Shown: positions 47 through 61,596, counted from the stretch's first letter. The stretch is 64,000 nt of DNA from an uncultured cyanobacterium (GCA_963793265.1 CAWBZI010000002.1:544001-608000); one strand, 5' to 3'. Translations and numbers: made by a program. Notes: generated by a model not told the origin, from the sequence alone.

Positions 47-1414
47 ATGAAAGCATCGATTTTTCGGCCTAATTTTCCTTTTTCGCCTGCCAAATTCCCC
101 GTTTTCTACGGCTGGGCCATTCTCGTTGCCAGTGTCTTAGGCGTGATGACAAGCATCCCCGGCCAAACTATCGGCGTGAGCGTTTTTACCGATCGCTTGA
201 TTGAGGCAACCGGGCTCTCACGATTGGCGCTATCAAATGCTTACTTAGTCGGTACGCTCACTAGCGGATGCTTGCTGCCGTTTGGCGGTAAGCTGCTTGA
301 TCGGCTGGGGGCAAGGCGGGTGGTAGTATTGGCCTCTGTGGGACTCGGCCTGACGCTGTGCTATTTAACGGTGTGCGATCGCCTCTCCCTCCTCTTTGCC
401 ACCTTCCTCCCCTTTTCCTCACCCCCTATCGCCGCCGTTCTTCTCGTCCTCGGCTTTGTCAGCCTGCGCTTTTGCGGTCAGGGAATGCTCACCATGACCA
501 GTCGCACCATGCTCGGCAAATGGTTTGAGCGCAATCGTGGTCGGGTGTCTGGGATTGAAGGAATTTTTGTGGCGTTTGGATTTTCGATTGCGCCTAAGTT
601 TTTTAGCTGGGCGATCGCACTTGTCGGCTGGCGAGCCACCTGGCTCACGCTAGCGGCAATTGTGGGCTTAGGCATGAGCACTATCGGCTGGCTGCTGTTT
701 CGCGACAATCCTGAAGTCTGCGGCCTACAAATGGACGGTGATTCAGCGCCTTTTTCAGAAGAGTCTCAAGATGAAGATCCCCACTCGACCGCTCAGCCTG
801 AGCCAGTTAACAAAATGTGGGGCGTGACTCGCAGCCAGGCTATCAAAACCCTCGCTTTTTGGGCGGTGACGCTAGCGTTTGCCGCTCAGGCGCTTTCAAT
901 TACTGGCATTACCTTTCATATTGTCAGCATCGGTGCAGAGTCAGGAATTGCCGAAGCAGATATGGTAAATATTTTTGTGCCGATTGCGCTGGTTTCTACC
1001 GTGGTGGGTTTTGTTGTTGGGCTGGTGTGCGATCGCGTTCGGCTTCAGTTCATTTTTATGTTCATGATGGTGGCTCAAGCGATGGGGATTGCAGCTATTG
1101 CAAACTTAGACATTGCTTGGATGATTGTGCCAGCAACAATCGGTCTTGGCATTAGCGGCGGCTGCTTTGGCACGCTCACAACCGTTGTGCTGCCCCGGTT
1201 TTTTGGTCGGGCGCATTTGGGCGCAATTTCTGGTGTGCAGATGATGATGGTTGTGATTGCCAGTGCGATTGGGCCGTCGCTCTTAGCTAATGTAGAGGCG
1301 GTAACTGGCTCGTATACCGGGGCGCTTTATGGCTGCTGTTTGTTTGCCCCGGTGGTGATTACTTTGATGGTGTTTGTGCGATCGCCCTACCCTATCGCGC
1401 GCAGTAACGCGTAA
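47..1414 (+). CDS. MFS transporter
   Basis: 455 aa with about 12 hydrophobic segments; MFS motif A-like GKLLDRLGARR. Confidence 0.85.
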   Translation: MKASIFRPNFPFSPAKFPVFYGWAILVASVLGVMTSIPGQTIGVSVFTDRLIEATGLSRLALSNAYLVGTLTSGCLLPFGGKLLDRLGARRVVVLASVGLGLTLCYLTVCDRLSLLFATFLPFSSPPIAAVLLVLGFVSLRFCGQGMLTMTSRTMLGKWFERNRGRVSGIEGIFVAFGFSIAPKFFSWAIALVGWRATWLTLAAIVGLGMSTIGWLLFRDNPEVCGLQMDGDSAPFSEESQDEDPHSTAQPEPVNKMWGVTRSQAIKTLAFWAVTLAFAAQALSITGITFHIVSIGAESGIAEADMVNIFVPIALVSTVVGFVVGLVCDRVRLQFIFMFMMVAQAMGIAAIANLDIAWMIVPATIGLGISGGCFGTLTTVVLPRFFGRAHLGAISGVQMMMVVIASAIGPSLLANVEAVTGSYTGALYGCCLFAPVVITLMVFVRSPYPIARSNA

Positions 1415-1446
1415 TTTTTAGTAGCTGGTAAGGCGATCTTATATCT

Positions 1447-2013
1447 CTACGCCGCCCGTTTTACACCCCAGCCTTTAGAAACAGCGAGGCTCATACCCGC
1501 TAGGCCCATCAACAAAGCGCCCGTAGCACCTGGCTCAGGAACAGACTGTGCCGACGCCGCGGTGAGTGAGTAGCTGCTAAAGCGGAAAGCTTCTGCTGTG
1601 CGAATAGGCGTGTCTATATCGAGATAGCCAGCGTCTGCAAAAGATCGCTCGGCTGTGTTGAACAAAGAGAATCCGACCTCGCCACCGCCATCAGCACGCA
1701 AGTCTCCGATTGCAAAAGAAGCAAAGCCACCGTCTAGCGCGAGCGTAGAATCAAAAGCAAGTCCGCTAGGAGAGAACTCAACCGGCATTCCAGCCGTGTT
1801 GGTAAGCGACGAAGACGCCACGTCTGTAATCGATAAGATGTTGCCGTCGCTTGCAAGGTCACCGTTCAGCAGCGCCGAAAAAGTGGTGCCGTCATCAAAC
1901 ATATAAGAGAAGTTGAAAGAAGCGGCCTGTGCGGCGGCGCTATAGAATGCCACTAAGCTTACTGAAGTGCAGCCTACAGCTAGGAGCTTAGCGAGCGATT
2001 TAGATAAGGTCAT
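1447..2013 (-). CDS. PEP-CTERM sorting domain protein
   Basis: Signal peptide from ATG 2013 (MTLSKSLAK...AAAQA); C-terminal VPEP, TM helix and basic tail. The ORF track start (2130) is probably too long. Confidence 0.85.
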   Translation of the reverse strand: MTLSKSLAKLLAVGCTSVSLVAFYSAAAQAASFNFSYMFDDGTTFSALLNGDLASDGNILSITDVASSSLTNTAGMPVEFSPSGLAFDSTLALDGGFASFAIGDLRADGGGEVGFSLFNTAERSFADAGYLDIDTPIRTAEAFRFSSYSLTAASAQSVPEPGATGALLMGLAGMSLAVSKGWGVKRAA

Positions 2014-2418
2014 GTTGTATAGAAATCCTGGATATTGAAAGCGGAATAAAAGATGCATTTGTTTTCGCATCATGCCCGCACTATAATCAATATCTCCTGT
2101 TATAGGCTGGGGGATACGCAGAGATTTCATCGCAAGTTTATGAAACCGGTCTGTGAATACAAGAGATTACGGGAGCTGTGCCCGTAGTGATACGTGGAGT
2201 CTATTGTCTTATTTTAACAGTAGGATATGTAGTGATACGGACAGCCTTGGCTGATGAATAGTCTTTTTTGATACTAATTTTGCACTTTGACTATTGAGAA
2301 ATACTGTAAGGCGCGATCGCAGCCTCTCTTTTCAGCAATTCAAACAGGATACTGAGTTCTGTCCTAAGTAAATTTAGGAAAGCATCCGTTCTTGTACAAA
2401 GCTTTAAACTCGACCAGT

Positions 2419-3267
2419 TTATACCTGTGAGGCAAACCAATCTATTAGCTTGTGAGCAATGCTCAGCTCGCCCGGCACAGGCGGTAGCTCAGTTTTATTA
2501 AACCAGTCAGCAGCTTCAATTTCGGTAGGTTCAGGCGTAATCGTGCCGCTAGCGTATTCAGCCGTAAAACCAACCATCAGAGAATTTGGAAAAGGCCAAG
2601 GCTGAGAGCCAAAGTAGCGAATGTTTTTCACCTCAAGACCCACTTCCTCTTTCACTTCGCGCGCGACTGTTTCTTCTAATGACTCGCCCGGTTCAACAAA
2701 GCCTGCTAGCACGCTATACATGCCGTTGCGAAAGCGAGGAGCCCGAGCGAGTAAAAGCTGTTCTCCTTTATAGACAAGCATAATCACTGCCGGAGACAGG
2801 CGAGGATACTGTCTGAGGTTGCAGTTGGGGCAGCGTTTGGCACGTTCGGTCGGAAGCTGAATAGTCGGTGTGGCACAGTGACCGCAGTATTGATGGGTGC
2901 GATCCCATTCGGTGATTTGAACGGCGCGAGCAGCGATCGTAAACAAATCATCTTTCAGCACACCATGCAGCTTACGCAAAGGTTGAAAATCCGTACCTGG
3001 CGGCAGTATGACCTCTTTAGGTAGCTCAGCGGCGATGCAAGGGTGATTGTTGAGATAGCCTAGAAATTGACTTCTTACAGGTTCAATATCTAGACTTTTT
3101 AAGCGATCGCCCACAGGAATCGAACAATTTCCATCAGAAGTCACAACAAGTAATTCAGAACCACGACAGCAGAACCACCAGGCAGGCAAATCGACTTCAA
3201 CCTGCTGATGAGGTTCGGTCGCCGGAACAAAACTCACAGGAATTGCAAAGGGCTGAGGGAGAATCAA
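2419..3267 (-). CDS. nudC: NAD(H) diphosphatase NudC
   Basis: Zn ribbon CGHC...CPNC, Nudix box GFVEPGESLEETVAREVKEEVG, SQPWPFPNS. Confidence 0.95.
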   Translation of the reverse strand: MILPQPFAIPVSFVPATEPHQQVEVDLPAWWFCCRGSELLVVTSDGNCSIPVGDRLKSLDIEPVRSQFLGYLNNHPCIAAELPKEVILPPGTDFQPLRKLHGVLKDDLFTIAARAVQITEWDRTHQYCGHCATPTIQLPTERAKRCPNCNLRQYPRLSPAVIMLVYKGEQLLLARAPRFRNGMYSVLAGFVEPGESLEETVAREVKEEVGLEVKNIRYFGSQPWPFPNSLMVGFTAEYASGTITPEPTEIEAADWFNKTELPPVPGELSIAHKLIDWFASQV

Positions 3268-3806
3268 TTAAACGCCCTCCAGGTAAGGCTAATGCGCGGC
3301 CCGACACCCTTTTGTTTTTTAATCGCGTGTACCCATTTATCTTGCACGTCTGAGCCCATATAAAGCATCGATCCAGGCTGTAGCATAAACGCTTTTTGAA
3401 TTGTTTTATCTGCCTTAGTCCGATACGTCAGCTTGCGAGGATAACCCAGTGAAACAATCGCCACGCCTGTACCCGGCTGCAAATCGCTCGTATCGTCAGC
3501 GTGAAAACCCATTTTGCTCTGGCCCGTCTCATAAAAGTTGAGCAGGCAGTTGTTGAACTTTACGCCCAGCGTTTTGTATAGCTGATTGACCACAGGAATC
3601 AAAGCCTCGTGCATCGGGACAGCAGGGTAGGTCATTTGAGCGTAATTGTAAGGTACGCCAAAGGAGGCGGTACGACGCGCGGCCATGCTGCCTTCCCATT
3701 TAATTGTTTTACGCAGCGTGTCAAACAGCGTCATCTGATCGGGAATGAAGCCATTGTCTATGCGCAGTTTTAACGGTGGGTGAGCGAGTGGAGCGGTCGA
3801 CGGCAT
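3264..3806 (-). CDS. AlkB-like 2OG-Fe(II) dioxygenase
   Basis: LLNFY..G...MGFHADD, HAIKK, RISLTWR motifs; overlaps the nudC start by 4 bp. Confidence 0.85.
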   Translation of the reverse strand: MPSTAPLAHPPLKLRIDNGFIPDQMTLFDTLRKTIKWEGSMAARRTASFGVPYNYAQMTYPAVPMHEALIPVVNQLYKTLGVKFNNCLLNFYETGQSKMGFHADDTSDLQPGTGVAIVSLGYPRKLTYRTKADKTIQKAFMLQPGSMLYMGSDVQDKWVHAIKKQKGVGPRISLTWRAFN

Positions 3807-3870
3807 GGGGTGATTCTTTGTGAACTCAAGATTATTAGGCGTCCTGAAATGCTATCAGATCGCACTAGCC

Positions 3871-4845
3871 CTACAATCCGGGCGTAGCGATTAGATTAGA
3901 AAGCGTTATTTCCCACACCAGTCGAGGCTGAACGTAGGCCAGTAAGTAGCCTCGGGCTTTTTCTAGCGCCGCAATTGTCTCTTCACCCACAGCGCCCTGC
4001 TGCCAATACCGATGCTGTAAATAGTCCAGCAGCCAAAGCTGAGCTTCGGTATCTAGCGCCTGATTGATATCGCGCGCGATTTCGAGGGCGTCTCGCAACC
4101 GTACCGGAGGCTTGGCGAGCTGAGAAAGTAGCGCTGGCGGTAGTGCCTGTAGCTGCTCCCAGCTTTCGATAGCGCGACCGGGAGAGCCCTGGGCGATCGC
4201 TAACACCTCAGCCGACTGCAAAATCTCATGATGACCCTGCCGCGAAAGCACCTCAACCATCTGCTCACCGTTGAGCCGACGAAAAGGAATCGCCTGACAG
4301 CGAGAAATCAGTGTCGGCAGCAGCGCCTGCTGATCGGGGGCCATCAAAATAACCGAGGCGTTTCCCGGCTCTTCCAAAGTCTTCAGCAGGCCATTAGCCG
4401 CCGCTTCTGCCATTCGCTCGCCCTGCTCAATCACCACGACTGATCTAGGCGACTCTAGCGGCGGACGGCTCAAAAAACGCGCAATATCACGAATTTGAGG
4501 CAGCCGAATGCGGGGTGGGCTTTTACGCTTGAGCCCTGCTGTCGCCGCCTGGCTTGGCGTCAAAAGATTGCCGTTATGGAGGTAGGTAGGCTCTACCCAA
4601 AGGAGATCTGGGTGGTTGCGATCGCGAATCCGCCGCCTCAAAACATCCGCCGCGCCAGCGCCCACAGACCGCAGCAACATTTCAGCAAACCCAGTCGCTG
4701 CCAAAGACTTCCCCGTACCTGCCGGGCCAACAAACAAATATCCCGGCGCAATCCGGTCTAATGCCACTGCGCGTTCTAATAGATGAACGGCCTGCGTTTG
4801 ACCTACCAAATCGGCAAAAGGGCTTAAGGAGATGGAGGATACCAC
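3871..4845 (-). CDS. holB: DNA polymerase III subunit delta'
   Basis: GPAGTGKS, NHPDL, AANGLLKTLEEP, LLPTLISRC; follows tmk. Confidence 0.93.
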   Translation of the reverse strand: MVSSISLSPFADLVGQTQAVHLLERAVALDRIAPGYLFVGPAGTGKSLAATGFAEMLLRSVGAGAADVLRRRIRDRNHPDLLWVEPTYLHNGNLLTPSQAATAGLKRKSPPRIRLPQIRDIARFLSRPPLESPRSVVVIEQGERMAEAAANGLLKTLEEPGNASVILMAPDQQALLPTLISRCQAIPFRRLNGEQMVEVLSRQGHHEILQSAEVLAIAQGSPGRAIESWEQLQALPPALLSQLAKPPVRLRDALEIARDINQALDTEAQLWLLDYLQHRYWQQGAVGEETIAALEKARGYLLAYVQPRLVWEITLSNLIATPGL

Positions 4846-5552
4846 TGGGCGACTCGCTGCTGAAAAACTTGCTGAACGTGAGCGGCCACAACGTCTTCTG
4901 AAAAATGACCGTCAATTTCTACTATAGGCCCGCTGCTGTAGGCATTAACGATGTGGCCCTGCGCAGGTTTCGCTAACTGGGCAAAGCCCTCATGTACCCG
5001 CTGATGAAACGACTGAGCCTGCTGCTCCATCCGATCGGCGCGGGCGCGCTGACGCATTCTATCAAGCCCTACCGCTGCCGAAACGTTTAGCCATAGCGTC
5101 AGGTCGCTGTTGAGCCCGCCAGTCGCGATTTCGTTGAGCTGATGGATTAGCGCCAAATCAAGCTGACGGCCATAGCCCTGGTAGGCCACCGTGGAATCTG
5201 TGTAGCGATCGCACAGCACCCAATACCCTGCTTCTAGCCACGGCCTCAGCGTTTCCTCAACGTGCTGAGCCCGGTCGGCGGCATACAGCAGCAGCTCGGT
5301 TCTGCTAGCGATGGGAGCCTGAGGCGAGGGGCGATCGCTCAGCAGCAATGTTCTAACCTGCGTACCTAAAGCAGTACCGCCCGGTTCGCGCGTAAGCTTT
5401 ATACCGGCAACTTTTCGCTCGGCAATTAGTGTCTGAGTAGGCTTGTGCTCACTTAGCCAAACCTGAAGTCGGTTGATTTGAGTCGTTTTACCACTGCCTT
5501 CGCCACCTTCAAAAACAATCAGCTTCCCCCGCATCGCCTGCTCTTTTTGCAT
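4824..5552 (-). CDS. tmk: Thymidylate kinase
   Basis: FEGGEGSGKTTQ, TREPGG, CDRYTDSTVAYQGYGR. Confidence 0.96.
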   Translation of the reverse strand: MQKEQAMRGKLIVFEGGEGSGKTTQINRLQVWLSEHKPTQTLIAERKVAGIKLTREPGGTALGTQVRTLLLSDRPSPQAPIASRTELLLYAADRAQHVEETLRPWLEAGYWVLCDRYTDSTVAYQGYGRQLDLALIHQLNEIATGGLNSDLTLWLNVSAAVGLDRMRQRARADRMEQQAQSFHQRVHEGFAQLAKPAQGHIVNAYSSGPIVEIDGHFSEDVVAAHVQQVFQQRVAQWYPPSP

Positions 5553-5721
5553 AATTCCTCTAAACCGCGCTGTCTTTGTTTATACTCGCGCTAAAAACGC
5601 CCCCTATTCCCTATTGAGAGAAACAAAGGTATCCTAATCAATGATCCTTGCTAGGATAGCAGGCGTGCATCCGCAGCTTTCATCACACCTGTGTCTAAAT
5701 TTTGTCGCCTCGTAATGCTCT

Positions 5722-6081
5722 ATGGCTCGCTACACCAATTTCTTCATGACCCGTTCTTCGCAAGAAGCAATTAGTCACTCCCTCGTTAGCGCGCTGGAGG
5801 CTTGCGATCTCAATCTGGTCTACCAAGACCCGGTTTGCATTGTGGCCAAAGAGCGGCCTGGGCAGGTATCTTTTGCTCAGCTCGCAACCGTAGAGTTATT
5901 GATTAGCCCGCCCACAATAGAGAGCGGCGGCTCAAAAATTGATTTGGTGGTCAAAAACGAAGAGCTTCCCTTAAGAGCGCAAAACCACTGTAAGGAAGTA
6001 TTCTCACAGATAAACCAGGCTATATCAGACGCTAACGATCCTGAAAAAAACAGCGCACCGAGCGATAGCATTGCCAGTTAG
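5722..6081 (+). CDS. Hypothetical protein (probably cyanobacterial conserved)
   Basis: 119-aa ORF divergent from tmk; no catalytic motif recognised. Confidence 0.7.
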   Translation: MARYTNFFMTRSSQEAISHSLVSALEACDLNLVYQDPVCIVAKERPGQVSFAQLATVELLISPPTIESGGSKIDLVVKNEELPLRAQNHCKEVFSQINQAISDANDPEKNSAPSDSIAS

Positions 6082-6148
6082 ATCAGGTTTGAGTACTCAG
6101 AAGTTTGTTTCTAAAGCTGTACGTCTATAGCTATAGAACTGTTGACAT

Positions 6149-7366
6149 TTGGCTTCGATCAGGCGAGAACGCGATAGGCTAACACAAGCTACAGCAGCGG
6201 CTAAGCAACTTGTAGTAGCGCTGGTTTTTGGAGGATTGTGCGTCGTGTCAAATATCGGTGAGAAATGGCAGCAGCGGATTGCCAAAAAGGGTTCACCGCG
6301 TAACGGTTCAACAGGCCACGGTTCAACAGGCCACGGTTCGGCAGATCATAACGGCGCTCATGATCGTGAGCATCGCGCTCACGATCATGAGCATCGCGCT
6401 CACGATAGCCACGGCCACGATAGCCACGGTCATGCCAATCACGAGCATCCAAACTACAAAAGCTTTTACACCTATCGCGCCGAAGTCAGACGAGTCCTCT
6501 TAATTACGCTAGTGCTCAACGTGCTGGTCGTAGTGCTTAAGCTAGTCGTTGGGAGCTGGACGGGCTCGCTCAGTTTGCTTGCAGACGCGCTCCACAGCAT
6601 TACCGACAGCGCCAATAACGTCTTGGGCTTAGTGACTAACCAACTGGCCTCGCCCGTCCCTGATCGCGACCATCCCTACGGCCATCAAAAGTATGAGGCC
6701 GTTGGTGCGCTCGGAATTGCAGCATTTTTAGGAATTGCCTGCTTTGAAATCTTGAAGGGCGCTGGCGAACGGCTTTTGTATGAAAGCGAGCCGGTACAGA
6801 TGGGCGCTACTTCGCTATGGTTTTTAATCGCGGTGCTGGGCATCAACATTTTCGTCGCCTTCTACGAGCGGCGGGTCGGTACTCGCTTAGGCAGCAACAT
6901 TTTGATTGCCGACGCGCAGCACACGATGAGCGACATCTGGATCACCATCGCGGTGCTGGGCGGCTTGATTGGTGTATGGAGTGGCGTGCAGTGGCTAGAC
7001 GTGGTGCTGGCTTTTCCGGTGGCGCTACTGGTGATTCGCAGTGGGTGGGTGGTGCTGTCGGCAAATTTGCCCTGGCTGGTTGATGAAATGGCGATCGCAC
7101 CCGAGGCCATTCACGCTGAAGTGATGAAAGTGCCCGGCGTTTTGAACTGCCACAGCATCGCCTCACGCGGCCTGTTAGGTCGTCAGGTCTTTATCGACAT
7201 GCACCTAATCGTAGAACCTCAAGATGTACTAGGCGCACACGATATCACCGAGCAAGTAGAACAACAGCTTGAGGCGGAGTTTGGCCCCATTCGAGTGACC
7301 ATTCATATAGAGCCGCATAGCTATGTCGAGAGAGAGATTAGCTACGGGATGAGCGAACACACATGA
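6149..7366 (+). CDS. Cation diffusion facilitator transporter with His-rich N-terminus
   Basis: SLSLLADALHSITD, HPYGHQKYE, ADAQHTMSD, C-terminal IHIEP; true start may be downstream of 6149. Confidence 0.9.
   Translation: MASIRRERDRLTQATAAAKQLVVALVFGGLCVVSNIGEKWQQRIAKKGSPRNGSTGHGSTGHGSADHNGAHDREHRAHDHEHRAHDSHGHDSHGHANHEHPNYKSFYTYRAEVRRVLLITLVLNVLVVVLKLVVGSWTGSLSLLADALHSITDSANNVLGLVTNQLASPVPDRDHPYGHQKYEAVGALGIAAFLGIACFEILKGAGERLLYESEPVQMGATSLWFLIAVLGINIFVAFYERRVGTRLGSNILIADAQHTMSDIWITIAVLGGLIGVWSGVQWLDVVLAFPVALLVIRSGWVVLSANLPWLVDEMAIAPEAIHAEVMKVPGVLNCHSIASRGLLGRQVFIDMHLIVEPQDVLGAHDITEQVEQQLEAEFGPIRVTIHIEPHSYVEREISYGMSEHT
6303..6433 (+). repeat. In-frame tandem repeats encoding His-rich tract
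   Basis: ACGGTTCAACAGGCC x2; a 21-bp unit x2; CACGATAGCCACGG x2. Confidence 0.9.
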
Positions 7367-7881
7367 ATTTACCCACCTGGATTACAGTTTCTCGACTACT
7401 CGGCGTGCCAATTGTTCTAATCGCACTGCTCAATCCAACAGAGTCTCATCGTTGGATCAGCGTCGTCGCCTTTGTTATTTTTGCAGGCACCGACTGGCTC
7501 GACGGCTACTTAGCGCGAAAGCTCAATCAGGTCACCGACTTAGGCAAGTTTTTAGACCCCTTAGTAGACAAGCTGTTAGTGATGGCTCCTTTAATGGCCC
7601 TAGTAGGCTTAGGTGAGATTCCTGCTTGGGGCGTATTTCTGATTTTAGCGAGAGAGCTAACGATCTCGGGCTGGCGGGTAAATCCTGTTTTTCAGCAGGG
7701 GAAAGTGCCGGGCGCTGGAATATGGGGAAAGGCAAAAACAGTGGTACAGATTATTGCGATCGCCCTCTTACTCGCACCTTTAGTCGGCATTTGGCAAACC
7801 GCAGGCATTGTTCTTTTTTGGGTAGCGGTCGCCCTTACTTGGGTATCAGGACTACTATATCTGTTGCCTGCTAAGGCTTAA
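7363..7881 (+). CDS. pgsA: CDP-diacylglycerol--glycerol-3-phosphate 3-phosphatidyltransferase
   Basis: TDWLDGYLARK...GKFLDPLVDK motif. Confidence 0.95.
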   Translation: MNLPTWITVSRLLGVPIVLIALLNPTESHRWISVVAFVIFAGTDWLDGYLARKLNQVTDLGKFLDPLVDKLLVMAPLMALVGLGEIPAWGVFLILARELTISGWRVNPVFQQGKVPGAGIWGKAKTVVQIIAIALLLAPLVGIWQTAGIVLFWVAVALTWVSGLLYLLPAKA

Positions 7882-7961
7882 GTAAAACCTTTCAGCAACG
7901 GGTTCTTAGCAACTACAAGGTTATAATGAAAGAGCACAACCAAGCAACGAGGTCACAACAT

Positions 7962-8222
7962 ATGACCGTCAGGCAACCCCGATACAGTAAAGAGGAATTT
8001 GCTCAACGTGGCGATGCGATATATAAAAACCAAGTGCAGGCTCAAGTAGAAAAAGAAAACCACGGCAAGATTGTAGCGATTGATATTGAAACCGGGGCTT
8101 TTGAAGTTGCAGACGAGATCTTAGCTGCAACCAATCGTTTATTTGAAAGAATCCCAAACGCTCAGCCTTGGATAGTTCGCATTGGGCACCGTGCGGTTCA
8201 TCGCTTTGGCATAACTCTTTAA
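7962..8222 (+). CDS. Small conserved protein of the type usually paired with a clan AA aspartic protease
   Basis: MTVRQPRYSKEEFAQRG...GKIVAIDIETGAFEV...WIVRIG; GAGG upstream of ATG 7962; pairing recalled, not searched. Confidence 0.7.
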   Translation: MTVRQPRYSKEEFAQRGDAIYKNQVQAQVEKENHGKIVAIDIETGAFEVADEILAATNRLFERIPNAQPWIVRIGHRAVHRFGITL

Positions 8223-8226
8223 TCAA

Positions 8227-8298
8227 GATGTTTACGGCTACGACTTGCGAATTCCGGTAGTGGAAGGTGGCAAGGTTGCGATAAAAGCGATTGAGTAG
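8227..8298 (+). pseudogene. C-terminal remnant of a clan AA aspartic protease gene
   Basis: Reads DVYGYDLRIPVVEGGKVAIKAIE*; no N-terminal part or catalytic DTG motif. Confidence 0.6.
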
Positions 8299-51296: not shown

Positions 51297-51302
51297 GAAA
51301 CC

Positions 51303-52495: not shown

Positions 52496-53449
52496 TTAGT
52501 CAGCAGGATTTTTGTTGATTATGCCGCGAATGAGGACTTGAGTTTGTAGTCTTGGGGAACGGCTAGCATCGCTAGCGGGGCTTGTCGATGTCGAACGACC
52601 AGACGTGTCCCCCTTCAAAAATAGAAATACATCCTGATTATCTACGCCCACTCCACCGGGTAAGCTTGGATCGCTTATACAAGCAAAGAAGCTACTATCC
52701 GCTGTTACGTTGGATGGCGAACGTACATATCCGGCAGAGCCCGTGAAATTTTGACAGTTTAGGGCATTGGTACTGTCTATATCTACCTCACCAATATAGT
52801 CAACTAATACAGTAGAGGTATCAGGTGGCTTGGTTGATCCATTTTTAGTCCAGGAACCAAAGTCGCCACCTGGTTCCTCGTAACCTACAGTCTTTGTTAG
52901 CGTCGAAACATCTGAATATTGTTTCATTTCAAAACGGCTGATTCGAGACTGACCCTCCCATGGATCAGTTGCCCCGGAAATCTGTGAGTAAACAACTAAA
53001 TCGTAAGAGGCTCTACGGATTTTTAAGATGTCACACTCTGCCTCATCATCATCATCAGAGAACTCGCTAGCGCAGGTGTTCGGAATCTCGCTGTTGATAT
53101 CAATAGGTCTAACCTTCCAGAAAGCTAGAACAGGTATGTGAGCACTTTGTAGTTCAACACCCGTAGCTCCTGTTACATCAGATGGATCTGGATAAACGTA
53201 AACGGCCTCTCGTAAGTCATCCGCTATGTAGTTCATAGCTCTCTGAGTATCTCTTTGCACTTCTTCTAACGCAATCTCGCGGTTATCTACTCTGAGAAGT
53301 TCTATGACTAAGAAAAGTAGACCAGAAACTACTAAGCCAGAAATTACAACAGCAATCAGAAGTTCCATCAAGGTGAAACCTTTATCGACTGGCTTTCTAT
53401 GTATTAGAAATAAGAAGTATCGCCACGATCGTGGAACCGTTTTAGACAT
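52496..53449 (-). CDS. hpsC: PilW-like pseudopilin (HpsC-like)
   Basis: KG|FTLMELL, AMNYIADDLREAVYVY, PVLAFWK; position in the hps cluster. Confidence 0.75.
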   Translation of the reverse strand: MSKTVPRSWRYFLFLIHRKPVDKGFTLMELLIAVVISGLVVSGLLFLVIELLRVDNREIALEEVQRDTQRAMNYIADDLREAVYVYPDPSDVTGATGVELQSAHIPVLAFWKVRPIDINSEIPNTCASEFSDDDDEAECDILKIRRASYDLVVYSQISGATDPWEGQSRISRFEMKQYSDVSTLTKTVGYEEPGGDFGSWTKNGSTKPPDTSTVLVDYIGEVDIDSTNALNCQNFTGSAGYVRSPSNVTADSSFFACISDPSLPGGVGVDNQDVFLFLKGDTSGRSTSTSPASDASRSPRLQTQVLIRGIINKNPAD

Positions 53450-53517
53450 TTTTTAGTGAATTTATAAATTTAGAGAGGAAGAGAATCAGCAAAATGTAGA
53501 TAAGCGCAAACAATTAT

Positions 53518-54219
53518 CTATGGGGACGTACAAGATCCAGGAGTGGTAGCACTGTCGTCATCCATATAAAGATAATAACCACACAAAGACTCTTTTCTGT
53601 CACTTTTGACAATGGTTGTATACACCACAGAGAGAGGGCGATTTGTACCTTGGCCTTCTCCGCTCGTCATCGTCAGGCTAGCCTGACGAGAATCTGAATC
53701 AGCACCAACAGCACTAACTCTATAGACTCGAACACCTAGCTCAAACGCAACTGGCTGTCCGCCTGCACCATCAATAGTGCCGCTGTCGAGATTGGTGCGG
53801 AAGATTTGAACGGCAAAGTCATCGTCGCCATCGCTATCAATATCAATGCCTCTTGCGTGGTTCGGTGCCACAGTATCAGAGACGCTATCTGGGGGATCAA
53901 CGTCTTCCATTGTCTCAGAGGCAGCTAAGGCAATAGGGGCAACGTCATTCAGATCATAGTCTCCTCCCTTTTCGATTCTTAAGCGTATTTTATCTACTTC
54001 AGACTGAGCAATATGAGTAGCCTGTTCCGCTCTTTGATTCTGTACGCGGGTTGCCACCGATAGAACTGTTACAGGTGCAATAACACCTAGACTAGCTGCG
54101 ATGACAGCGATCGCCACTAGGCATTCAATAAGAGTCAAGCCTTTGCTTTTTTCTAGCTCTGTTTGTTCTATAACAACTAACCTTTTGAAAAAGTACTGAG
54201 AGAGAGAGTTTAGTTTCAC
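53518..54219 (-). CDS. hpsB: PilV-like pseudopilin (HpsB-like)
   Basis: KG|LTLIECL, SVATRVQ, LGVRVYR; directly after hpsA. Confidence 0.75.
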   Translation of the reverse strand: MKLNSLSQYFFKRLVVIEQTELEKSKGLTLIECLVAIAVIAASLGVIAPVTVLSVATRVQNQRAEQATHIAQSEVDKIRLRIEKGGDYDLNDVAPIALAASETMEDVDPPDSVSDTVAPNHARGIDIDSDGDDDFAVQIFRTNLDSGTIDGAGGQPVAFELGVRVYRVSAVGADSDSRQASLTMTSGEGQGTNRPLSVVYTTIVKSDRKESLCGYYLYMDDDSATTPGSCTSP

Positions 54220-54253
54220 TTATAACAACCTCTTGAGAATGAGAAGAAAAACA

Positions 54254-57200
54254 TCAACAGTCAAAGTCCACCTCTGTTGTGCTGCATAAGTTAGCAATGT
54301 ATTCATCGTCTACGGCCAATTCTCTAAAGTACTCGCTACGAGGTCTAGCCACCTTCACAAATCGCTGAGCAATAGGTCCAGCAGGCGAGTATTGAAAGGC
54401 AACATCGTAGCCCCAAATACGTTTAGCAGCACCGTAATAGTAGTTACTTTGAACCTGGTTGCCGGTAACTACACCATCACTAATGAAATCAAGTACTCCG
54501 CTAGCGTTTGTCTTATTTGAATGCGGTTGTGCTCCAGGCTCCCATGCATCCTGATCAAAAGGCGCTACAGCTTGAGAACTAAAGTTAAGTTGAAAGAAAC
54601 CACCTGAGATAATTAGCGGTCTACTCGAGTCAACGCCGGGTCTACCTGCCCAGAACTCTAATAGTCTAGGGAAGTTATGGAGGCCACCATAGGTTTGTCC
54701 TGGCCTAGATGGAACGATTCCGCCTACTAAGAGTGCGTTTACTCTAACTATGTCGGTTTCGTTTGGTCTGTTCTGCTGGGATTGTCTATTTTTATAGTAT
54801 GGATTAGTATAAGGAGCCCTATAAAAAGATAGGTATCTACCTCCTGATTCTTTTGGAAATACCTCAAAAGAGCCTGGATGAACCAGCAGGCGTATTGGAC
54901 GATGTATTGTATGATCTTCGATTGTCGCTTCGCTTATAGACTTTTCCGTTCCTATCAACGCTAACGGGAGTAGTGACTTCATAAGCCACAGTAGAAGAAT
55001 CAGACGCCGGGTTAGAAGCTTCGCGTCGCCAGATAGAACGATTATGCTCAACGCCTGCAGAGCTGCCTAAATCGAATTTTCCCCAAGGATGGTTCCAATT
55101 CAGATAGGAAGAAATTTTAGAAGGTTCTCCCTCTTTCGGAGTGTTAGGGGCCACAGTAGAAAATCCATCTTCTATCCAACCATCTGTAAAAAAGTCTGAC
55201 AAAATAGTTATGCCATCGGCAAATATTTCTACCGGACGCCAGTTATCTTGCAAAGGATCTGCAAATCTGTCGTCTAACTTGTCGCGTCCATAGAATAATT
55301 TTCTCGCGTTCTGTTCTTCTGTCTCAGGAAAATTAGCAAATGTTGTTGACAATAAATTACTTTGGCCAGAAACGATACTACTGGTTCCTTTGAATTCCTC
55401 GATAAGGTGTTCTTCTAAAGTTCCTCCTGCAGTTTTATCGGCATGTAAGTTAAAGTCGCCTTTTATATAAACTGTATTGTCAGTAACAAATGTCATTCCA
55501 GCAATAGCGGCTGGTTCGACAGAAGCTGGTCTATTCAAAGATTCACCGTTGATGAAACGAAAGCCGTTAGGACGACGATCTGGATCTGCATACATATCTA
55601 CAGGCTTCGGACTTATTCCAGTGCTGCTATTAAGCGGTGGATCTTGTGGATATCTTGAGTCAGTCGGGTCTACTGACATATAACACTTGTCATTCGTGGT
55701 TAACTCATCAAAGTCTTTACAGAGCGACCAATCTCCATCATTAGGTCGCACGATTGAGTCTTCTCGTACTGCATCTTCTCTAAAGGCATAAACAATTCCA
55801 CTATCAGCAGGAATCCAGGCTTTGTTGTTAGGTGCTGCTCCTACTGTACCATTAGTCGCGCTAGTGTCAGTTAATAGGTCAATATCAAGATCTAGTACGC
55901 GAACACTAAGCAACTCACGACCATCCATCATGGCCTTATCCAGCATAGACAACCTGTAATACTTGTAATCTAATCCTTCCTTTACTCGAATGACATTCCG
56001 GGTTAAATTCCTAGCTGTCAGTGTTGGACGACCGCTATTGGTAGTTGCTCCGCTCTCAGTATATTTGTAATCATTGGGATCGGGAGATCCACCAAACTCA
56101 GGGGCGGCGACTTCAGAGAACTCGAATGGAGTTGAAGAACTCGGAGCCGAATCTGGTGTGACAGAAGCTCTAGGTAGTTTCCAATCGGAAGGTTGACGAA
56201 TCGTTAACGCAATCGCAGATGGTTCTAAAGCCTCGTAAAGGGATGAGCCACTACCGTTAGCAGTATCAATGTAATCATTTACTCCTACATCGAATAACTC
56301 CTCCAATGGCGGCTGAGTAGAAGTTCCTGAACCTCTCTGACTATGAGAAACCTCCGGGAAAATGTAAAATAAAGATGGATATCTAGAGATCTCGTTTGTA
56401 GCCTTTTCACAGAAGATTGCTCCCAGTATGTTTCGATTGGCAGGCCCACCGAAGACAGGACCAAATTCTGAAGTTGGGTTACAAACAGAGCTAGATAAAT
56501 CTGAGTCCTTTATGAAGCCAAATTGTCTGTCCCTCATTATCTGACGATACAGAAAAAGATTTCTCTTCTCAATATCCGAGAGCCTCAATCCGACAGGCAA
56601 TAGTGAATTAATAAAGTCGATACGTTTCCTTATTGTTTCTTTTGCTGCAATATCAGATGAAGTTTTTCCGTTGACTGTCATCGCGAGTGAGATTGCATTA
56701 ATTTTATTCTTAAGAATTTCTCTTGCTTCTTTCTTAACACTGTCTAAGTTATAAGCCAACATTCCTAGAGTACAGGCTGCTGTATCAATAGTTGATTTAT
56801 CGGCTGGACTCAGCGTGTCGTAGTTTGTAGCGGATATATCGATAATGCGGCGCAGCACTGAGAAGTCACCCCACATTGACATATAAGGATATGGGTGAAT
56901 GAAGTCGTCTTGAATGGCAGGAAAAGACGGGGCTCCTCCGTTCGGATCTCCTGCGAAGTATGCCAAGTTCTTGAGTGCTTTAGACCAAGCGCCCGATATG
57001 GTAGGGCCGAAGCTAGCACTAGGTGGTGCAAATTCTACACCATTCGTTCCGCGACCTGTCAGAAAATTAGTTTCCCACAGGCGCTGGCCTGAACTATTAA
57101 CGTAAGAATATTGCTCGAATGTTCGACTATCTTCTAATGTCTCTTGAGTACCAGGGTGTGAAGTAGCAGCAACACAGGCTAAAGGGTATCCACCGGCTGC

Positions 57201-59078
57201 TGAATCAGCAGAATGGTAAACTACCAGTCCTTGAACAGCAGCAAGATTATCTCTTAAGGAACGCATTTGAAGTGTCTCTGCTGCACCTTTCTGTAGATTA
57301 TCTGTACCGGGCTTAAAGTATCCACTAAAGTTGTTAGAAGACCTCCTCGCGACGGGAAGCTCGAAGTCAGTGTCACTTGGAGGATACAAAGGATCATCAC
57401 TTTCCTTCCAGCCAAAATAGTCGCCTAGTTCAAGCCTTTGGCCTACAACTATGCGTAAGCCATTAGCAATAGCGCTTCTTTCCCAATAGCCATCTAATCC
57501 ATAGCCAGTATCAGCGCTTGCAGAGTTACTAATGAGAACATCTCTACCAACTATTGCATCTCCAGACTTATGCGTAACAGTGAGAGGCGCTCCATCTTCT
57601 TTCTTAAGACCTTCATCGTCGTTATATTTGGGTTTAGGCCCGTAGCGATTATCAGCGCGGTAGCCATCGTCCAAAAAAGGACGGGCTGAGCCGTTATCAT
57701 CATTTTCGATTCGTAAGGGATGACTACTATCATCTTCCCAAACAGCATTATCTCTTTTCCAAGAACCAGAGGGTGCGGGAGCTACATTATGGATAAACTC
57801 ATCTTCTGTAAATATGCGGACAGGATCTTGAGCTATGTCCGAAGGGCTAATTGCATTAGTTGGGTCTACGGAGTCTGATGAGGCTATAAGCGCACCTCCA
57901 CCATCTTCAAATAGGGGAGCATCTTTAGCTGTGACATCCGTATGAAAGACTGAGCCATCAGAAGTATGGAAAGGACTGTCACCAGCCTTTTTGCCAGTGA
58001 CACCTGCAACAGCTTGCCCGAGGAAGTTTGCATCCCCATTATCATTCTCCACTAGGCCGCTAATCTCAATAACAGATGCCTGTGGGTCATATACACATGA
58101 TTCAGGCGAGCTTACCATGTAAGCATTGAAGCCCTTACCCGTCAACAAGCTGCCTTCTGTATGCATCGCACCATTCCATCGAAGGGGCTCACCGGGTGAA
58201 ATCTCCATATCATAGCGAAACCAAGCTCCCCACAGATTGCCTCTAGGCGATGTACGTACTTGCTGGTATTCAGAAGCACTTACTGTCTTAGAAGAACCTG
58301 TACCTTTTACCGCAACAACATTGACTTGAATATTCTTTGCTAGATTTTGCCCACCAGCAAGTTGCCATCCGGTACCAGACACACCTTCTACCGGACAGTT
58401 CTCTGATGGCGTTTGGGTATCAATCGGTCCATTGCGAACTATGAATCTATCTGCCTTCTCTTCATCAGATGATTTAGAAATAGTGAAATCATCGCTATCA
58501 TCGCTATCAGTTCCATTGTTGTCAGAGTCATCTAACACAATCGAATAGATGATTTGTGTTCCATCCGGTGCTTGAAAAGACCAAACGTTATCTACTGTAG
58601 AGGCATCACCATCTGTATCGTTCAGACGTATTTCACCACCCCGCTCATCTGAGGTAAAAGTGTACGGGTCAGTTAAAGGAGTATCAGCTTTGAGAAGAAG
58701 TGCATCAAGTAGATTGCTACTAGAGGGCGGACGTTTATCTGCGACACTGGCATCCTGAGTAAATAGAAATTCTATTTTCGCTTTAGCTCTGTCTATAGCG
58801 GGGGCAGCTAAGCTATCTATAACTTGTTGATTGCGGTATGCGATGGTTTGTTCTGTACGAGAAAAGGTGCGAAAGCTGATAGCACCAACTGTTAATGTCA
58901 CCATCAGTAACAGTAGTACAGTGGTGGGTAGCACGAAACCGGCCTGGCCTGCGTGAGTTGGTTTGTTGATAAGAAAAAGACTTCTTAGAAGGCTGCTCAT
59001 GAAGCGGCTGCTTAGTCGCCGGAAGTCTGAGCGGGGGTTTCGAGGTTTTCTGGGGCGAGTCTGCTTGTCGGCGGACAT
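54254..59078 (-). pseudogene. hpsA: HpsA-like giant PilX-type protein with one frameshift near 54866-54869
   Basis: AG|FVLPT N-terminus, GLDGYWER, GLRIVVGQRLELG; continues in a second frame as GGIVPSRPGQTYGGLHNFPRLLE...WGYDV. Confidence 0.85.
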
Positions 59079-59112
59079 GGCTGGCTTCCTAACTGAATGA
59101 TGCTATTTGCCC

Positions 59113-59121
59113 AGATTACCC
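59113..59121 (-). promoter_or_regulatory. Putative SigF/SigJ-type promoter element for hpsA
   Basis: Minus strand GGGTAATCT about 35 bp upstream of the ATG. Confidence 0.5.
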
Positions 59122-59230
59122 AATGCCGTTGGGCAAAATAATCCGTAGGTTCACTCATCTAGAAAGCTGGAAAATATAGGGTTTTCGGCTTATCAGTACG
59201 ATATTGCTCATTTGGGAGGAAAGGTATAAA

Positions 59231-59264
59231 AATAAGCCCTCTGTGATATTACAGAGGGCTTATT
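59231..59264 (-). terminator. Intrinsic terminator after rpmB
   Basis: AATAAGCCCTCTGT-N6-ACAGAGGGCTTATT ending in a T run on the minus strand. Confidence 0.85.
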
Positions 59265-59300
59265 AGTAGATAGAGATTAAAGGGTTTGATGCCTTGTTTT

Positions 59301-59537
59301 CTAATACTTGTTGAGGTCGATGCCTGCGTCGCGGGCCATGGCTTCGAGTCCTTTTTTCTCAAGCGTTTTCAGGGCTTTTGTGGAGACGCGGAGCTTGACA
59401 AAGCGTTTGCCTTGGGGCCACCAGATGCGCTTGTCTTGAAGGTTGGCTTCTTGGAGGCGCTTGGTGCGGCGGTGGGAGTGGGAGACGGAAAAGGCGTTGT
59501 TGGCCTTTTTACCGGTGAGGTCACAGACTTTGGACAT
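59301..59537 (-). CDS. rpmB: 50S ribosomal protein L28
   Basis: [34 protein letters not shown]. Confidence 0.98.
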
Positions 59538-59613
59538 GGTACTTTACGCTAACAGGATTACTTATTATAGACAGCTATGGTCAGAAGGACAAAAAACGGT
59601 TAAATCAATCTGC

Positions 59614-61596
59614 TTATCGCTCAGTTAGCTGGGTGAGTAAGCTGGTAGAGCGTTCGGTGAAGGCTTTCATACCATCGGCGTCGAAGCCTTTTTGGGCCAT
59701 TAGCGCTAAATCGTATACCTGCTCGCAAATTAAGGAGGCTAGCTGTTCGGACGGGGAGGCGTTGCCATCGGGTTGAACGATAGCACCCTGGCCGAGCTTA
59801 GCGACGTTTTGAATAAGCGGGTGAGCGGTGTTCACTAGCAGCGTGTGTGAGTCAGGGAACTGGACGCCCTGCTGCTGAAGGAAGGCGCTCATTTCTTGCA
59901 TTCGACGAAGTTCTTCAGGGACGAGTACCATGGCGGGCGGGGCCGACTGGTCTGCGGACTTGAGGGCTTCTGTACGGATGGTGATTTGTGGGCGGTTCAG
60001 GGCTTTTGTGAATACGTCCTTAATTTGTTCGCTGCGAGTTTTGTTCGTCGTGGCATCTACGATTTCTGCTTCTTTGTCACTGTCAATCAGCGTGTCGTCA
60101 AGATCAGAGTCTACTCGGGAGAATTTTACGTCTGAGTATTCTTGCTCTAGGAAGGAGACAAAGTGGGTGTCGATGAAGGAGTCCATGAAGAGGACTTCGA
60201 GGCCCTGGTTTTTGAGCAGGCTGATGTAGGTGGCCTGGGAAACTTCGTCAGTGGCGTAGTAGATGCGGTTTTCGTGCTTTTCTTTATTGCGCTCTAGATA
60301 TTCTTTGATGGTGGTGTAAGAATTACCATCAGCGTCAGTAGCAGCAGCCGTCTCGTTCACGTCTGCCCAAGCGTCGCCTTCCGTTTCACCATCGACCTCA
60401 ACTTCGACTTTAGGTTTGTCGCTTCCCGCCAAGTCAGCAGTTGTGCGGAAGATTACATAGTCTTGTACCTGCTTTTTGAACTTGTCGTCGTTGAGTGAGC
60501 CAAATTTGGCAAAGGTGCCGAGGTCTTGCCAGATGCGGACGTATTCGGATAGGTCGTCGCGGTAGAGTTCTTTGAGGCGATCGCCCACCTTCTTCGCAAC
60601 ATAATCCGCAATTCGCCGTACCGTCCGATCCGCCTGCAAAAAGCTACGAGACACGTTCAACGGAATATCGGTACTGTCAATCACACCGCGCAAAGGCGTG
60701 AGGAACTTAGGAATAATTTCTTCGCAGTTGTCGCTAACAAATACCTGATTGCAGAACAGCTTAATCTGTCCCTTATTCAGCTCTACATCGGGCTTGAGCT
60801 TAGGGAAGTAGAGGATGCCATTGACTACGAAAGGATAGTCAGTGTTGAGGTGTACCCATAGCAAAGGCTCTTCTTCATACGGATAGAGGTAGCGGTAAAG
60901 ATTGAGGTAGTCTTCGTCAGTGAGTTCACTCGGAGACTTTTTCCAAAGCGCTTCTTGCTTGTTGATTGCCTCATCGCCCATTTTGATCGGGACGGGCATG
61001 AAGTCGCAGTAGGTTTTGACGAGCTGCTTGATGCGAGCTTCTTCTAGATACTCAGCTTCGTCGTCGTTGAGGTGGAGGGTGATAGTGGTGCCGCGTGTGG
61101 TGCGATCGCTCTCACTAATTTCAAAAGACGTGCTGCCATCACAAGACCAGTGCACAGGCTGAGCATCTTCGCGCCAGGAAAGCGTATCGATGTCAACGCG
61201 GTCGGCCACCATAAACGAAGAGTAAAAGCCTAAGCCAAAGTGACCAATAATCTGCTGGTCGTCGTTGTCTTTGTACTTATTGATAAACTCCTCTGCGCTA
61301 GAGAAGGCCACCTGATTAATATATTTTTTAATTTCATCAGCCGTCATGCCGATGCCGGTATCGCTGATGCTGAGCGTCTTCGCTTCTTTATCGATAGCGA
61401 TAGTGATTTCTGCATCAGTTTCGCCCTTGTACTCGCCTGAGCGAGAGAGCATACTTAGCTTGCTAATCGCATCAACGCCGTTGGAGATTAGCTCGCGAAT
61501 AAAAATTTCATGGTCGGAATACAGCCATTTTTTAATAATGGGGAAGATATTCTCGGTATGGATGCTGATGTTGCCCTGTTCTAAAACAGTTGTCAT
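59614..61596 (-). CDS. htpG: Chaperone HtpG (Hsp90)
   Basis: FIRELISN, DTGIGMT, IGHFGLGFYSSF, IPLNVSRS. Confidence 0.98.
   Translation of the reverse strand: MTTVLEQGNISIHTENIFPIIKKWLYSDHEIFIRELISNGVDAISKLSMLSRSGEYKGETDAEITIAIDKEAKTLSISDTGIGMTADEIKKYINQVAFSSAEEFINKYKDNDDQQIIGHFGLGFYSSFMVADRVDIDTLSWREDAQPVHWSCDGSTSFEISESDRTTRGTTITLHLNDDEAEYLEEARIKQLVKTYCDFMPVPIKMGDEAINKQEALWKKSPSELTDEDYLNLYRYLYPYEEEPLLWVHLNTDYPFVVNGILYFPKLKPDVELNKGQIKLFCNQVFVSDNCEEIIPKFLTPLRGVIDSTDIPLNVSRSFLQADRTVRRIADYVAKKVGDRLKELYRDDLSEYVRIWQDLGTFAKFGSLNDDKFKKQVQDYVIFRTTADLAGSDKPKVEVEVDGETEGDAWADVNETAAATDADGNSYTTIKEYLERNKEKHENRIYYATDEVSQATYISLLKNQGLEVLFMDSFIDTHFVSFLEQEYSDVKFSRVDSDLDDTLIDSDKEAEIVDATTNKTRSEQIKDVFTKALNRPQITIRTEALKSADQSAPPAMVLVPEELRRMQEMSAFLQQQGVQFPDSHTLLVNTAHPLIQNVAKLGQGAIVQPDGNASPSEQLASLICEQVYDLALMAQKGFDADGMKAFTERSTSLLTQLTER

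Follow-up and report, generated by a model that had tools for sequence, protein, structure and literature searches.

HIP1 sites lie at the centre of a mirror-image G-to-C strand flip in a cyanobacterial genome and may mark the entry of a one-directional DNA process

Most cyanobacteria carry roughly one copy of Highly Iterated Palindrome 1 (HIP1) per gene, and the role of this element has been debated since 1995, with a repair signal, a Chi-like site, an uptake signal and a chromosome organiser all proposed. In the Dam/MutH/MutS/MutL system of E. coli, a short methylated palindrome is the entry for strand excision toward a mismatch up to ~1 kb away; that system excises in both directions and chooses its strand by hemimethylation, so that no site-centred skew is expected. 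For HIP1 itself, the accessible text of Elhai (Life 2015, PMC4390886) proposes that methylated HIP1 is nicked by a MutH-like enzyme and that MutS/MutL degrade one of the strands for ~1000 nucleotides (nt). The available parts of the same paper and of 10.1101/2024.09.10.611283 liken HIP1 to Chi, the RecBCD/AddAB site, both being abundant GC-rich octamers tied to recombination. At human meiotic hotspots, the available text of Hinch et al. 2023 (PMC7615360) reports C>N and A>N mutations on the strand left single-stranded by 5′→3′ resection. Here we analyse a 64,000-nt stretch of DNA from an uncultured cyanobacterium (the window, G000:C2:544001-608000), together with the whole genome from which it comes (G000), and describe a switch in strand composition from G-rich to C-rich that is centred on HIP1.

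The G000 assembly comprises 5.68 Mb in 7 contigs, with a G+C content of 50.5% and a completeness of 99%. Genes were taken from our own 4,689 calls, made without annotation from open reading frames with a codon-usage score, which give 86% coding DNA. The exact HIP1 octamer, GCGATCGC, is present in 70 copies in the window (1.7 expected from shuffles) and in 6,888 copies in the genome, that is 1.2 per kb, of which 6,887 were scorable; the reversed control word has 307 copies in the genome. HIP1 is thus far more frequent than expected here, in line with the excess of more than 16-fold given in the consulted text of Xu et al. 2018. The sites are also conserved: among 513 ortholog pairs between G000 and a congener (G007), 196 of the 428 scorable sites are common to both genomes.

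A sequence-only reading of the window had reported an abrupt + strand switch from G/T-rich to C/A-rich DNA at HIP1, and had put a metaplot over all HIP1 sites, should it be flat, against its own claim. The annotation-free metaplot is not flat. Across all 6,887 scorable sites, + strand GC skew is +0.18 at 11–20 nt upstream of HIP1 and −0.19 at the same distance downstream; it reaches +0.34 to +0.50 at positions −1 to −3 and decays to +0.11 at 41–60 nt and +0.04 at 101–150 nt, with the mirror image downstream. We then scored every site as (G−C) upstream minus (G−C) downstream over 60-nt flanks, using 50,000 random positions as a control. The score was above zero at 84.2% of HIP1 sites and at 46.9% of random positions, which bears out the reported switch as a G-to-C flip. 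Its mean was 9.8 (standard deviation (s.d.) 9.3) at HIP1 versus 0.0 (s.d. 7.9) at random positions, and the whole distribution was shifted rather than bimodal, indicating that the flip belongs to nearly every HIP1 site and not to a sub-family.

Within the window, 60 of 70 sites lean from G-rich to C-rich, with a mean G−C of +4.9 upstream and −6.2 downstream per 60 nt; the ten exceptions lie at 8567, 9564, 11210, 14067, 17991, 25091, 33394, 35864, 42530 and 44819. The hand counts given earlier for the sites at 26355 and 49047 were exact (Table 1), and the names glk and hom assigned to the genes around them agree with Pfam matches. The polarity is the same in both gene orientations, as had been claimed from a few examples: the flip is seen at 2,616 sites in + strand genes, 2,544 in − strand genes and 540 in intergenic DNA.

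A flip of this kind recalls replication GC skew, in which G also exceeds C on one strand and the sign changes abruptly at a defined point. At HIP1, however, the scale is 0.1–1 kb, the pattern is repeated ~6,900 times rather than dividing two replichores, and the sign is terminus-like. The flip is present in all 7 contigs under either sign of the 100-kb skew, and the upstream-minus-downstream difference at fourfold-degenerate sites is 0.74 for positive and 0.81 for negative values of that skew. A replication-linked origin was rejected on this independence from the regional skew.

To describe the range of the effect, each base was assigned to its nearest HIP1, and the natural logarithm of G/C at fourfold sites was taken on the strand running toward the site. 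This value was 1.16 at 1–25 nt, 0.78 at 26–50 nt, 0.53 at 51–100 nt, 0.34 at 101–150 nt, 0.18 at 201–300 nt, 0.16 at 401–600 nt, 0.09 at 801–1100 nt and 0 beyond 1.5 kb. The profile therefore has a steep component, with an e-fold of ~70 nt, and a long tail to ~1 kb; the fourfold-site bias is still +0.046 ± 0.006 at 801–1100 nt and is zero at 1.5–2.5 kb. Between neighbouring HIP1 sites the + strand skew climbs from about −0.5 to about +0.5, giving a sawtooth whatever the gap-size class. This range matches excision or resection tracts, not very short patches, and coincides with the reach of ~1000 nt postulated for the same element in the accessible text of Elhai.

Specificity for HIP1 was examined using 115 control palindromic octamers, each represented by 30 or more copies lying over 150 nt from HIP1. 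No equal flip occurs at these controls, for which the mean is −0.007 (s.d. 0.038, maximum +0.089) and the value at HIP1 +0.345. Across the same 115 palindromes the flip was uncorrelated with the G/C composition of the half-site (r = 0.02), and half-site composition was accordingly rejected as a cause. The methylated sub-motifs were likewise rejected as sufficient, with no flip at CGATCG outside HIP1 (n = 830) or at GATC (n = 13,289), the latter being the word used by the E. coli system. Methylation as such is insufficient for the flip.

Three groups among the 24 one-mismatch variants of HIP1 share the flip: the transition variants GTGATCGC (n = 248) and GCGATCAC (n = 306), at +0.29 and +0.27, the variants GCAATCGC/GCGATTGC, at +0.13, and GAGATCGC, at +0.11. 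The first two are also the commonest, with 248 and 306 copies away from HIP1 versus 50–171 for each of the other 22. The position at which they carry a C-to-T change is presumably the cytosine methylated in HIP1, and their retention of the flip would follow if they had arisen recently from HIP1 by C-to-T decay. In the window, GTGATCGC or GCGATCAC is found at 8962, 13964, 14419, 22472, 22619, 30806, 32629, 36221, 40321, 40935, 47365 and 61859; of the two variant sites noticed earlier, 22619 had been placed correctly, whereas the one put at 36220 starts at 36221. The six half-site variants changed at position 1 or 8 (GCGATCGA/G/T and A/C/TCGATCGC; n = 57–120 each) gave flips of −0.04 to +0.04 on both sides, with no one-sided flip. 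In Elhai's model, as its available text has it, G-methylcytosine (G-mC) on one strand is enough; here, half-sites leave no footprint and the whole 8-mer is needed.

Switch points were also sought without reference to HIP1. A genome scan for sharp switches (D of at least 28) returned 655 G-to-C peaks, of which 466 lay no more than 20 nt from a HIP1 and a further 52 had a one-mismatch variant. The 137 orphan peaks left over are fewer than the C-to-G peaks of the same sharpness that lack both HIP1 and its one-mismatch variants (200 of 205); none of the 205 C-to-G peaks had HIP1. Because orphan G-to-C peaks are outnumbered in this way, HIP1 looks necessary for the flip, and no surplus population of orphan flips exists. 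Together, these results demonstrate that the G-to-C strand flip at HIP1 is real, strong, genome-wide and HIP1-specific. It is apparently undescribed in print: no paper describing a skew or compositional flip at HIP1 was found in the literature covered, outside which supplements and subscription journals lie, and in the accessible text the word 'skew' has no occurrence in PMC5861425 or PMC4390886 and appears in PMC13756078 only in another sense.

Next, we asked which bases carry the flip. Third codon positions show it most strongly, and first and second positions show it weakly. At fourfold sites up to 25 nt upstream, G makes up 0.42–0.47 and C 0.11–0.16 of bases in both gene orientations, compared with a background of 0.27 and 0.29; downstream the values are reversed, and G:C goes from ~4:1 just before HIP1 to 1:4 just after. 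The 513 ortholog pairs, whose third positions are 46% identical, place this signal with the site itself. At shared HIP1 sites (n = 196), GC skew at third codon positions upstream/downstream is +0.47/−0.39 in G000 and +0.38/−0.35 in G007. At sites found only in G000 (n = 122) it is +0.42/−0.31 in G000 and +0.01/−0.04 in G007, and at those found only in G007 (n = 110) it is +0.31/−0.33 in G007 and +0.11/−0.08 in G000; random aligned positions in the orthologs give a skew of 0. As the flip tracks HIP1 at orthologous positions, amino-acid context is removed as its cause, and the flip passes the amino-acid control that had been proposed for it, persisting at fourfold sites as well.

The footprint also fades as HIP1 decays. 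In whichever genome lacked a site, the residual score fell from 8.8 ± 1.1 where the sequence was the C2T/G7A variant (n = 29), through 3.4 ± 1.8 at other single mismatches (n = 16) and 2.2 ± 0.9 at double mismatches (n = 45), to −0.4 ± 0.5 where at least three positions differed (n = 142). The ortholog comparison by itself gives co-occurrence and not direction, which leaves room for the converse order of events, with G-to-C switch points arising otherwise and HIP1 being created or retained there. We consider this very improbable, given the fading with site decay, the lack of surplus switch points without HIP1 (137 versus 200) and the absence of a flip at palindromes of the same half-site composition. 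General hypermutation near HIP1 was not seen: composition-corrected synonymous identity between G000 and G007 shows an excess of 0.15 within 60 nt of a shared HIP1 and of 0.15–0.18 beyond 150 nt, a weak test, given the near-saturation of silent sites and the fact that an unchanged rate is also predicted by 'scaled-outflow' mutation models.

The form of the bias was resolved by comparing sites within 25 nt of HIP1 with those more than 250 nt from any HIP1. On the 5′ side, fourfold odds ratios were 3.42 for G/C, 1.85 for G/A, 0.53 for C/T and 1.01 for T/A, with a mirror of nearly equal size on the 3′ side; twofold sites agreed (G/A in NNR codons 1.87, C/T in NNY codons 0.42). The force is thus a single 'potential', with G at +0.6 and C at −0.6 log-odds and A and T neutral. 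What had been read as a keto skew is really one of G versus C, with fourfold T/A unchanged (odds ratio 1.01–1.07); the apparent T/A component arises because twofold codons swap C only for T and A only for G. Overall G+C content rises little near HIP1, from 0.54 to 0.56.

Several candidate causes were rejected on these data. A context-specific mutational signature was not seen, the odds ratio being 2.1–3.4 after every neighbouring base (the row for an antisense 3′ neighbour T, with G 2/C 2, is too sparse to count). Neither a single oriented flank motif nor G-runs or G-quadruplexes can be invoked, as no word dominates the flanks and the observed/expected ratio of GG is 0.89. Cytosine deamination on exposed single-stranded DNA as the sole cause predicts T up, A down and no purine gain at fourfold sites, whereas G is up, C is down and A and T are unchanged. 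A hairpin or extended palindrome, like repetitive extragenic palindromic elements, is contradicted by arms that are no more complementary than their composition requires (mirror-position complementarity 0.251–0.259 versus 0.252–0.261 expected, from 5 to 100 nt) and by real flanks that fold no better than swapped ones (folding energy difference 0.35 ± 0.28 kcal/mol, 500 sites). Immediately around the site, the −1 and +1 bases are complementary at 19.3% of the 6,887 sites versus 26.7% expected (0.193 versus 0.267), with a milder deficit at ±2 and ±3; 10-mer palindromes around HIP1 are disfavoured by some agent.

The same measurements bear on a cause at the RNA level, in which transcripts would depend on a G-rich 5′ flank and a C-rich 3′ flank of HIP1, for example to pair across the site. 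Such a cause could draw on the greater strength of the effect in coding sequence and on reverse-complement symmetry, which makes the sense strand of every gene look alike. For the latter reason, the independence from gene strand noted in the sequence-only reading holds as a description and fails as proof against an mRNA-level origin, being automatic for a pattern of this symmetry. An origin in transcripts is disfavoured instead by the ortholog comparison and by the weaker flip in intergenic DNA. It also has to contend with complementarity at the level of composition, and below it at ±1 to ±3, with equal folding of real and swapped flanks, with 5′ and 3′ sides of nearly equal size, and with the fact that intergenic bases flip too and that a flip is likewise seen in genes that diverge from a HIP1 lying between them (+0.21 ± 0.04, 90 sites; with HIP1 at least 60 nt from the genes, +0.09 ± 0.07, an under-powered comparison). 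We regard it as the least probable of the explanations considered.

Direct weak selection would act on the same silent bases: a G-rich strand ending 3′ at HIP1 might aid HIP1 function, for example through RecA loading on GT-rich tails or guidance of a translocase, with a tiny push per silent site in a very large population. RecA prefers GT-rich DNA, and log-odds of 0.6–1.2 are within the range of codon-usage selection. The bias has the form expected from fixation, with odds ratios that agree between twofold and fourfold sites and no increase in rate. Yet T is not favoured over A, there is no preferred word or G-run (GG observed/expected 0.89), thousands of bases in each genome, as far as 1 kb from HIP1, would have to be under selection, and intergenic bases, which should be equally usable, respond three to four times less. 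Selection of this kind therefore appears improbable to us.

To consider what process could leave such a footprint, we call Y the strand running 5′→3′ toward HIP1 and X its complement, whose 5′ end is at the site. On Y, G is favoured and C disfavoured by equal log-odds, with A and T neutral, steeply over ~100 nt and weakly up to ~1 kb. From this we robustly infer that Y behaves as the protected or winning strand and X as the replaced strand on both sides of HIP1. Our tentative preference is for a process in which 5′→3′ removal of the strand that begins at HIP1 is followed by its resynthesis on the partner strand, with mismatches settled in favour of Y. HIP1 would then be where a strand-specific process gains entry, through a nick or end arising at the palindrome on either strand. 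X would be stripped 5′→3′ away from HIP1, by RecJ-type excision with MutS/MutL-type recognition, and recopied from Y, and mismatches within reach, whether from replication errors or from recombination heteroduplex, would be resolved in favour of Y. If G-containing mismatches dominate, G on Y would be kept, G on X (that is, C on Y) would be overwritten, and A and T would be left untouched. Such dominance accords with the mismatch hierarchy, in which G·T, G·G and G·A are most often formed and best recognised, and C·C, C·T and A·C least. Correction in favour of Y would give an antisymmetric G/C bias, an unchanged overall rate, a decay set by the reach of excision and a sawtooth between sites.

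The sequence-only reading had proposed an enzyme system that starts at HIP1 and works outward. Its geometry holds, in that the effect is mirror-symmetric about HIP1, needs the full 8-mer, is strongest at silent sites and tracks HIP1 in orthologs; of its two suggested mechanisms, nick-directed excision and resynthesis is kept as the preferred class, and exposure of single-stranded DNA acting through cytosine deamination alone is not. Profile searches of G000 found MutS (MutS_V at 281 and 120 bits), MutL (MutL_C at 66 bits) and RecJ. A second RecJ-like frame, outside the window at G000:C6:55603-57079, is in two pieces with one TGA between them and may be a broken copy or a frameshift. The favoured process resembles Elhai's G-mC-directed repair, from which it differs in its one-directional excision and its need for the whole 8-mer. 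That model, in its accessible text, predicts no strand skew; the footprint described here requires excision in one direction, 5′→3′.

A process that begins with a break accounts for the data nearly as well as the favoured one that begins with a nick and excision. HIP1 would be a preferred site of double-strand breaks or recombination initiation, and 5′→3′ resection would leave Y single-stranded on both sides; Y would then lose C and keep G, either through damage to C on the exposed Y together with removal of lesions from X by resynthesis, or because the heteroduplex formed by the invading 3′ tail is corrected with a bias. The polarity is that of the strand-asymmetric mutations at human meiotic break hotspots (PMC7615360, available text), where a mirror-image asymmetry about a defined site, over 1–2 kb, is likewise accompanied by loss of C from the exposed strand. 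Those hotspots differ in being eukaryotic and driven by PRDM9/SPO11, in concerning de novo mutations rather than equilibrium composition, and in a raised A>N where A is neutral here. A reach of hundreds of nt to 1 kb fits resection, RecJ is present, and HIP1 in homology arms raises integration in PCC 7002, an effect called 'reminiscent of Chi' in the text available for 10.1101/2024.09.10.611283. A weak effect in intergenic DNA would moreover be expected if conversion needs homology between diverged strains. Against this stand the failure of deamination alone (fourfold T is not raised), the gain of G relative to A/T, which is as large as the loss of C and calls for protection of G besides damage to C, and the rise in G+C near HIP1 of only 0.02 (0.54 to 0.56), which gives little sign of ordinary GC-biased conversion. 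The breaks themselves are postulated, and RecC was not found. Chi is asymmetric and oriented with replication; HIP1 is palindromic and its flanks have no oriented or dominant word. On balance, we judge initiation by breaks possible but unlikely.

Several observations weigh against one-way mismatch correction starting from a nick at HIP1. One is the behaviour of intergenic bases, which flip with the same sign at only one-third to one-quarter of the fourfold log-odds at equal distance, whether or not the HIP1 is genic. A plain DNA-level process should act on intergenic DNA at least as strongly, unless such DNA turns over too quickly to reach equilibrium; this, or a requirement that diverged strains share homology, might account for the attenuation. 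Fourfold sites beside intergenic HIP1 are near-normal (+0.19 at 61–120 nt versus +0.23), and intergenic G+C is 0.43–0.47 versus 0.57–0.59 at fourfold sites near intragenic HIP1. The lack of a flip at half-sites misfits the simplest G-mC-directed version; such sites may be young, in which case this point weakens that version without excluding it. The mismatch hierarchy stems from work on E. coli and pneumococcus, not cyanobacteria. A nick at HIP1 is deduced from composition, and contigs from public runs cannot show the ends of molecules.

The gene content of G000 adds to these difficulties. Profile searches of the genome gave no match to MutH (PF02976, for which the E. coli control matched), Vsr (PF03852) or RecC (PF04257), and no HIP1-specific nuclease was among the profile matches. 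Of a MutHLS-type system, G000 therefore has MutS and MutL and no detected MutH, the homolog of the nicking enzyme that Elhai's model, in the text available, calls for. Very-short-patch repair by Vsr was rejected on the missing profile match and on a footprint of 100–1000 nt compared with a patch of ~10 nt. Considering all of this, we put forward, with less than even confidence, that HIP1 serves as the strand-entry site for a one-directional cyanobacterial system, of mismatch correction or recombination initiation, that has no MutH, Vsr or RecBCD homolog and writes a synonymous GC-skew sawtooth.

The flip extends to other genomes. In 800 kb of the congener G007, 680 of 824 HIP1 sites have the same polarity, and six genomes belonging to other families of the class, in small samples of 100 kb from single contigs, gave counts running from strong to weak (103/125, 44/59, 45/62, 112/173, 99/156 and 93/156). 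A further point against the favoured process is that no flip was found in ~100 kb each of G042 and G045 (L031-L040; another class, 63% G+C), where 27 of 50 and 16 of 35 sites lean the same way at a HIP1 density of 0.4–0.7 per kb. These two genomes are natural contrasts for finding the genes responsible.

Closer relatives were sought for the changes themselves. Twelve genomes of the same genus match at 70–77% identity. In four public metagenome runs, available as contigs only and compared over positions 1–20000 of the window, a share of 0.76–0.91 of the 31-letter words was held, from which strains in these runs are estimated to differ from the window by roughly 0.3–1%. The differences are mostly transitions; G↔C changes number 2 of 144 in run X1 and 1 of 114, 1 of 61 and 1 of 38 in the others. 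Direct G:C>C:G transversion mutagenesis is therefore unlikely, and the swap of G for C must have been reached through all substitution paths. A hand tally among the 40 of 228 differences listed gave, in the Y orientation, 13 purine versus 10 pyrimidine transitions within 150 nt of HIP1, too few to separate the predicted ratios of 1.0 and 1.5–1.9.

The same runs revealed other features of the window. At 16256–16347, between the genes at 15224–16237 and 16386–17468, the contigs of all four runs break with many different loose ends, and summed contig depth is 34.8 versus ~10 in X1, with a smaller rise in the other runs; the segment resembles a short element that is repeated or mobile, or else a hypervariable spot. 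At 6303 and 6367, in the + strand gene at 6149–7366, strains in X1 and X3 are without 15 and 21 bases, both in-frame. The near-identical strains come from metagenomes labelled macroalgae and sediment, in two studies; one of the metagenomes may be the sample of origin, so that they provide no independent evidence of habitat.

The features of the window that bear on the flip are collected in Table 1. The weak or absent flips in the gene with nine HIP1 sites arise because neighbouring footprints of opposite sign overlap.

Table 1. HIP1 sites, variants and HIP1-bearing genes in the window (G−C values are given for upstream, then downstream flanks on the + strand)
Feature	Position	Strand	Details
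Span of all 70 HIP1 sites	375..63487		Centres of G-rich to C-rich switches on the + strand, mirror image on the − strand
HIP1 in MFS transporter gene (+, 47-1414)	375..382		G−C +9 up, −28 down at offsets 4-63; Pfam MFS_1
Gene with nine HIP1 in 3 kb (sites 8450-11210)	8332..11343	-	Flips weak or absent; three of the ten exceptions (8567, 9564, 11210)
HIP1 in − strand gene (11736-12362)	12238..12245		G−C +17, −1; 60 nt before, 28 G and 9 C
HIP1 in − strand gene (15224-16237)	16028..16035		G−C +10, −14
HIP1 in − strand gene (20553-21551)	21174..21181		G−C +12, −11
GCGATCAC, G7A variant of HIP1 (C2T on the other strand), same flip	22619..22626		60 nt up, 30 G and 7 C; down, 12 G and 23 C
HIP1 in glucokinase gene, glk (+, 26124-27233)	26355..26362		20 G/6 C before, 12 G/25 C after (60 nt each); Pfam Glucokinase
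HIP1 in + strand gene (27266-28036), weak example	27470..27477		G−C +8, +1
GCGATCAC variant	36221..36228		Counted from 36220: up, 22 G and 10 C; down, 11 G and 26 C
HIP1 in + strand gene (44137-45306)	45028..45035		G−C +4, −22
HIP1 in homoserine dehydrogenase gene, hom (+, 48883-50238)	49047..49054		13 G/1 C in 26 nt before, 3 G/23 C in 46 nt after; Pfam Homoserine_dh
Second HIP1 in homoserine dehydrogenase gene	49660..49667		G−C +6, −15
HIP1 in Hsp90-family gene (−, 59614-61596)	60577..60584		G−C +10, −14; Pfam HSP90

The polar, strand-symmetric footprint points to a DNA transaction that starts at the whole 8-mer, runs 5′→3′ away from it on each strand and reaches ~0.1–1 kb, and this combination of direction, reach and starting point narrows the candidates for HIP1 function. 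If the proposal is true, a footprint that can be read in any HIP1-rich genome would answer the 30-year-old question of what HIP1 does, with the enzyme that recognises the 8-mer still to be found. Distance to, and side of, the nearest HIP1 matter more than gene strand for whether a G- or a C-ending codon is used in G000. The HIP1 footprint could therefore mislead the inference of selection, horizontal transfer or replication origins in studies of codon usage and GC skew in cyanobacteria.

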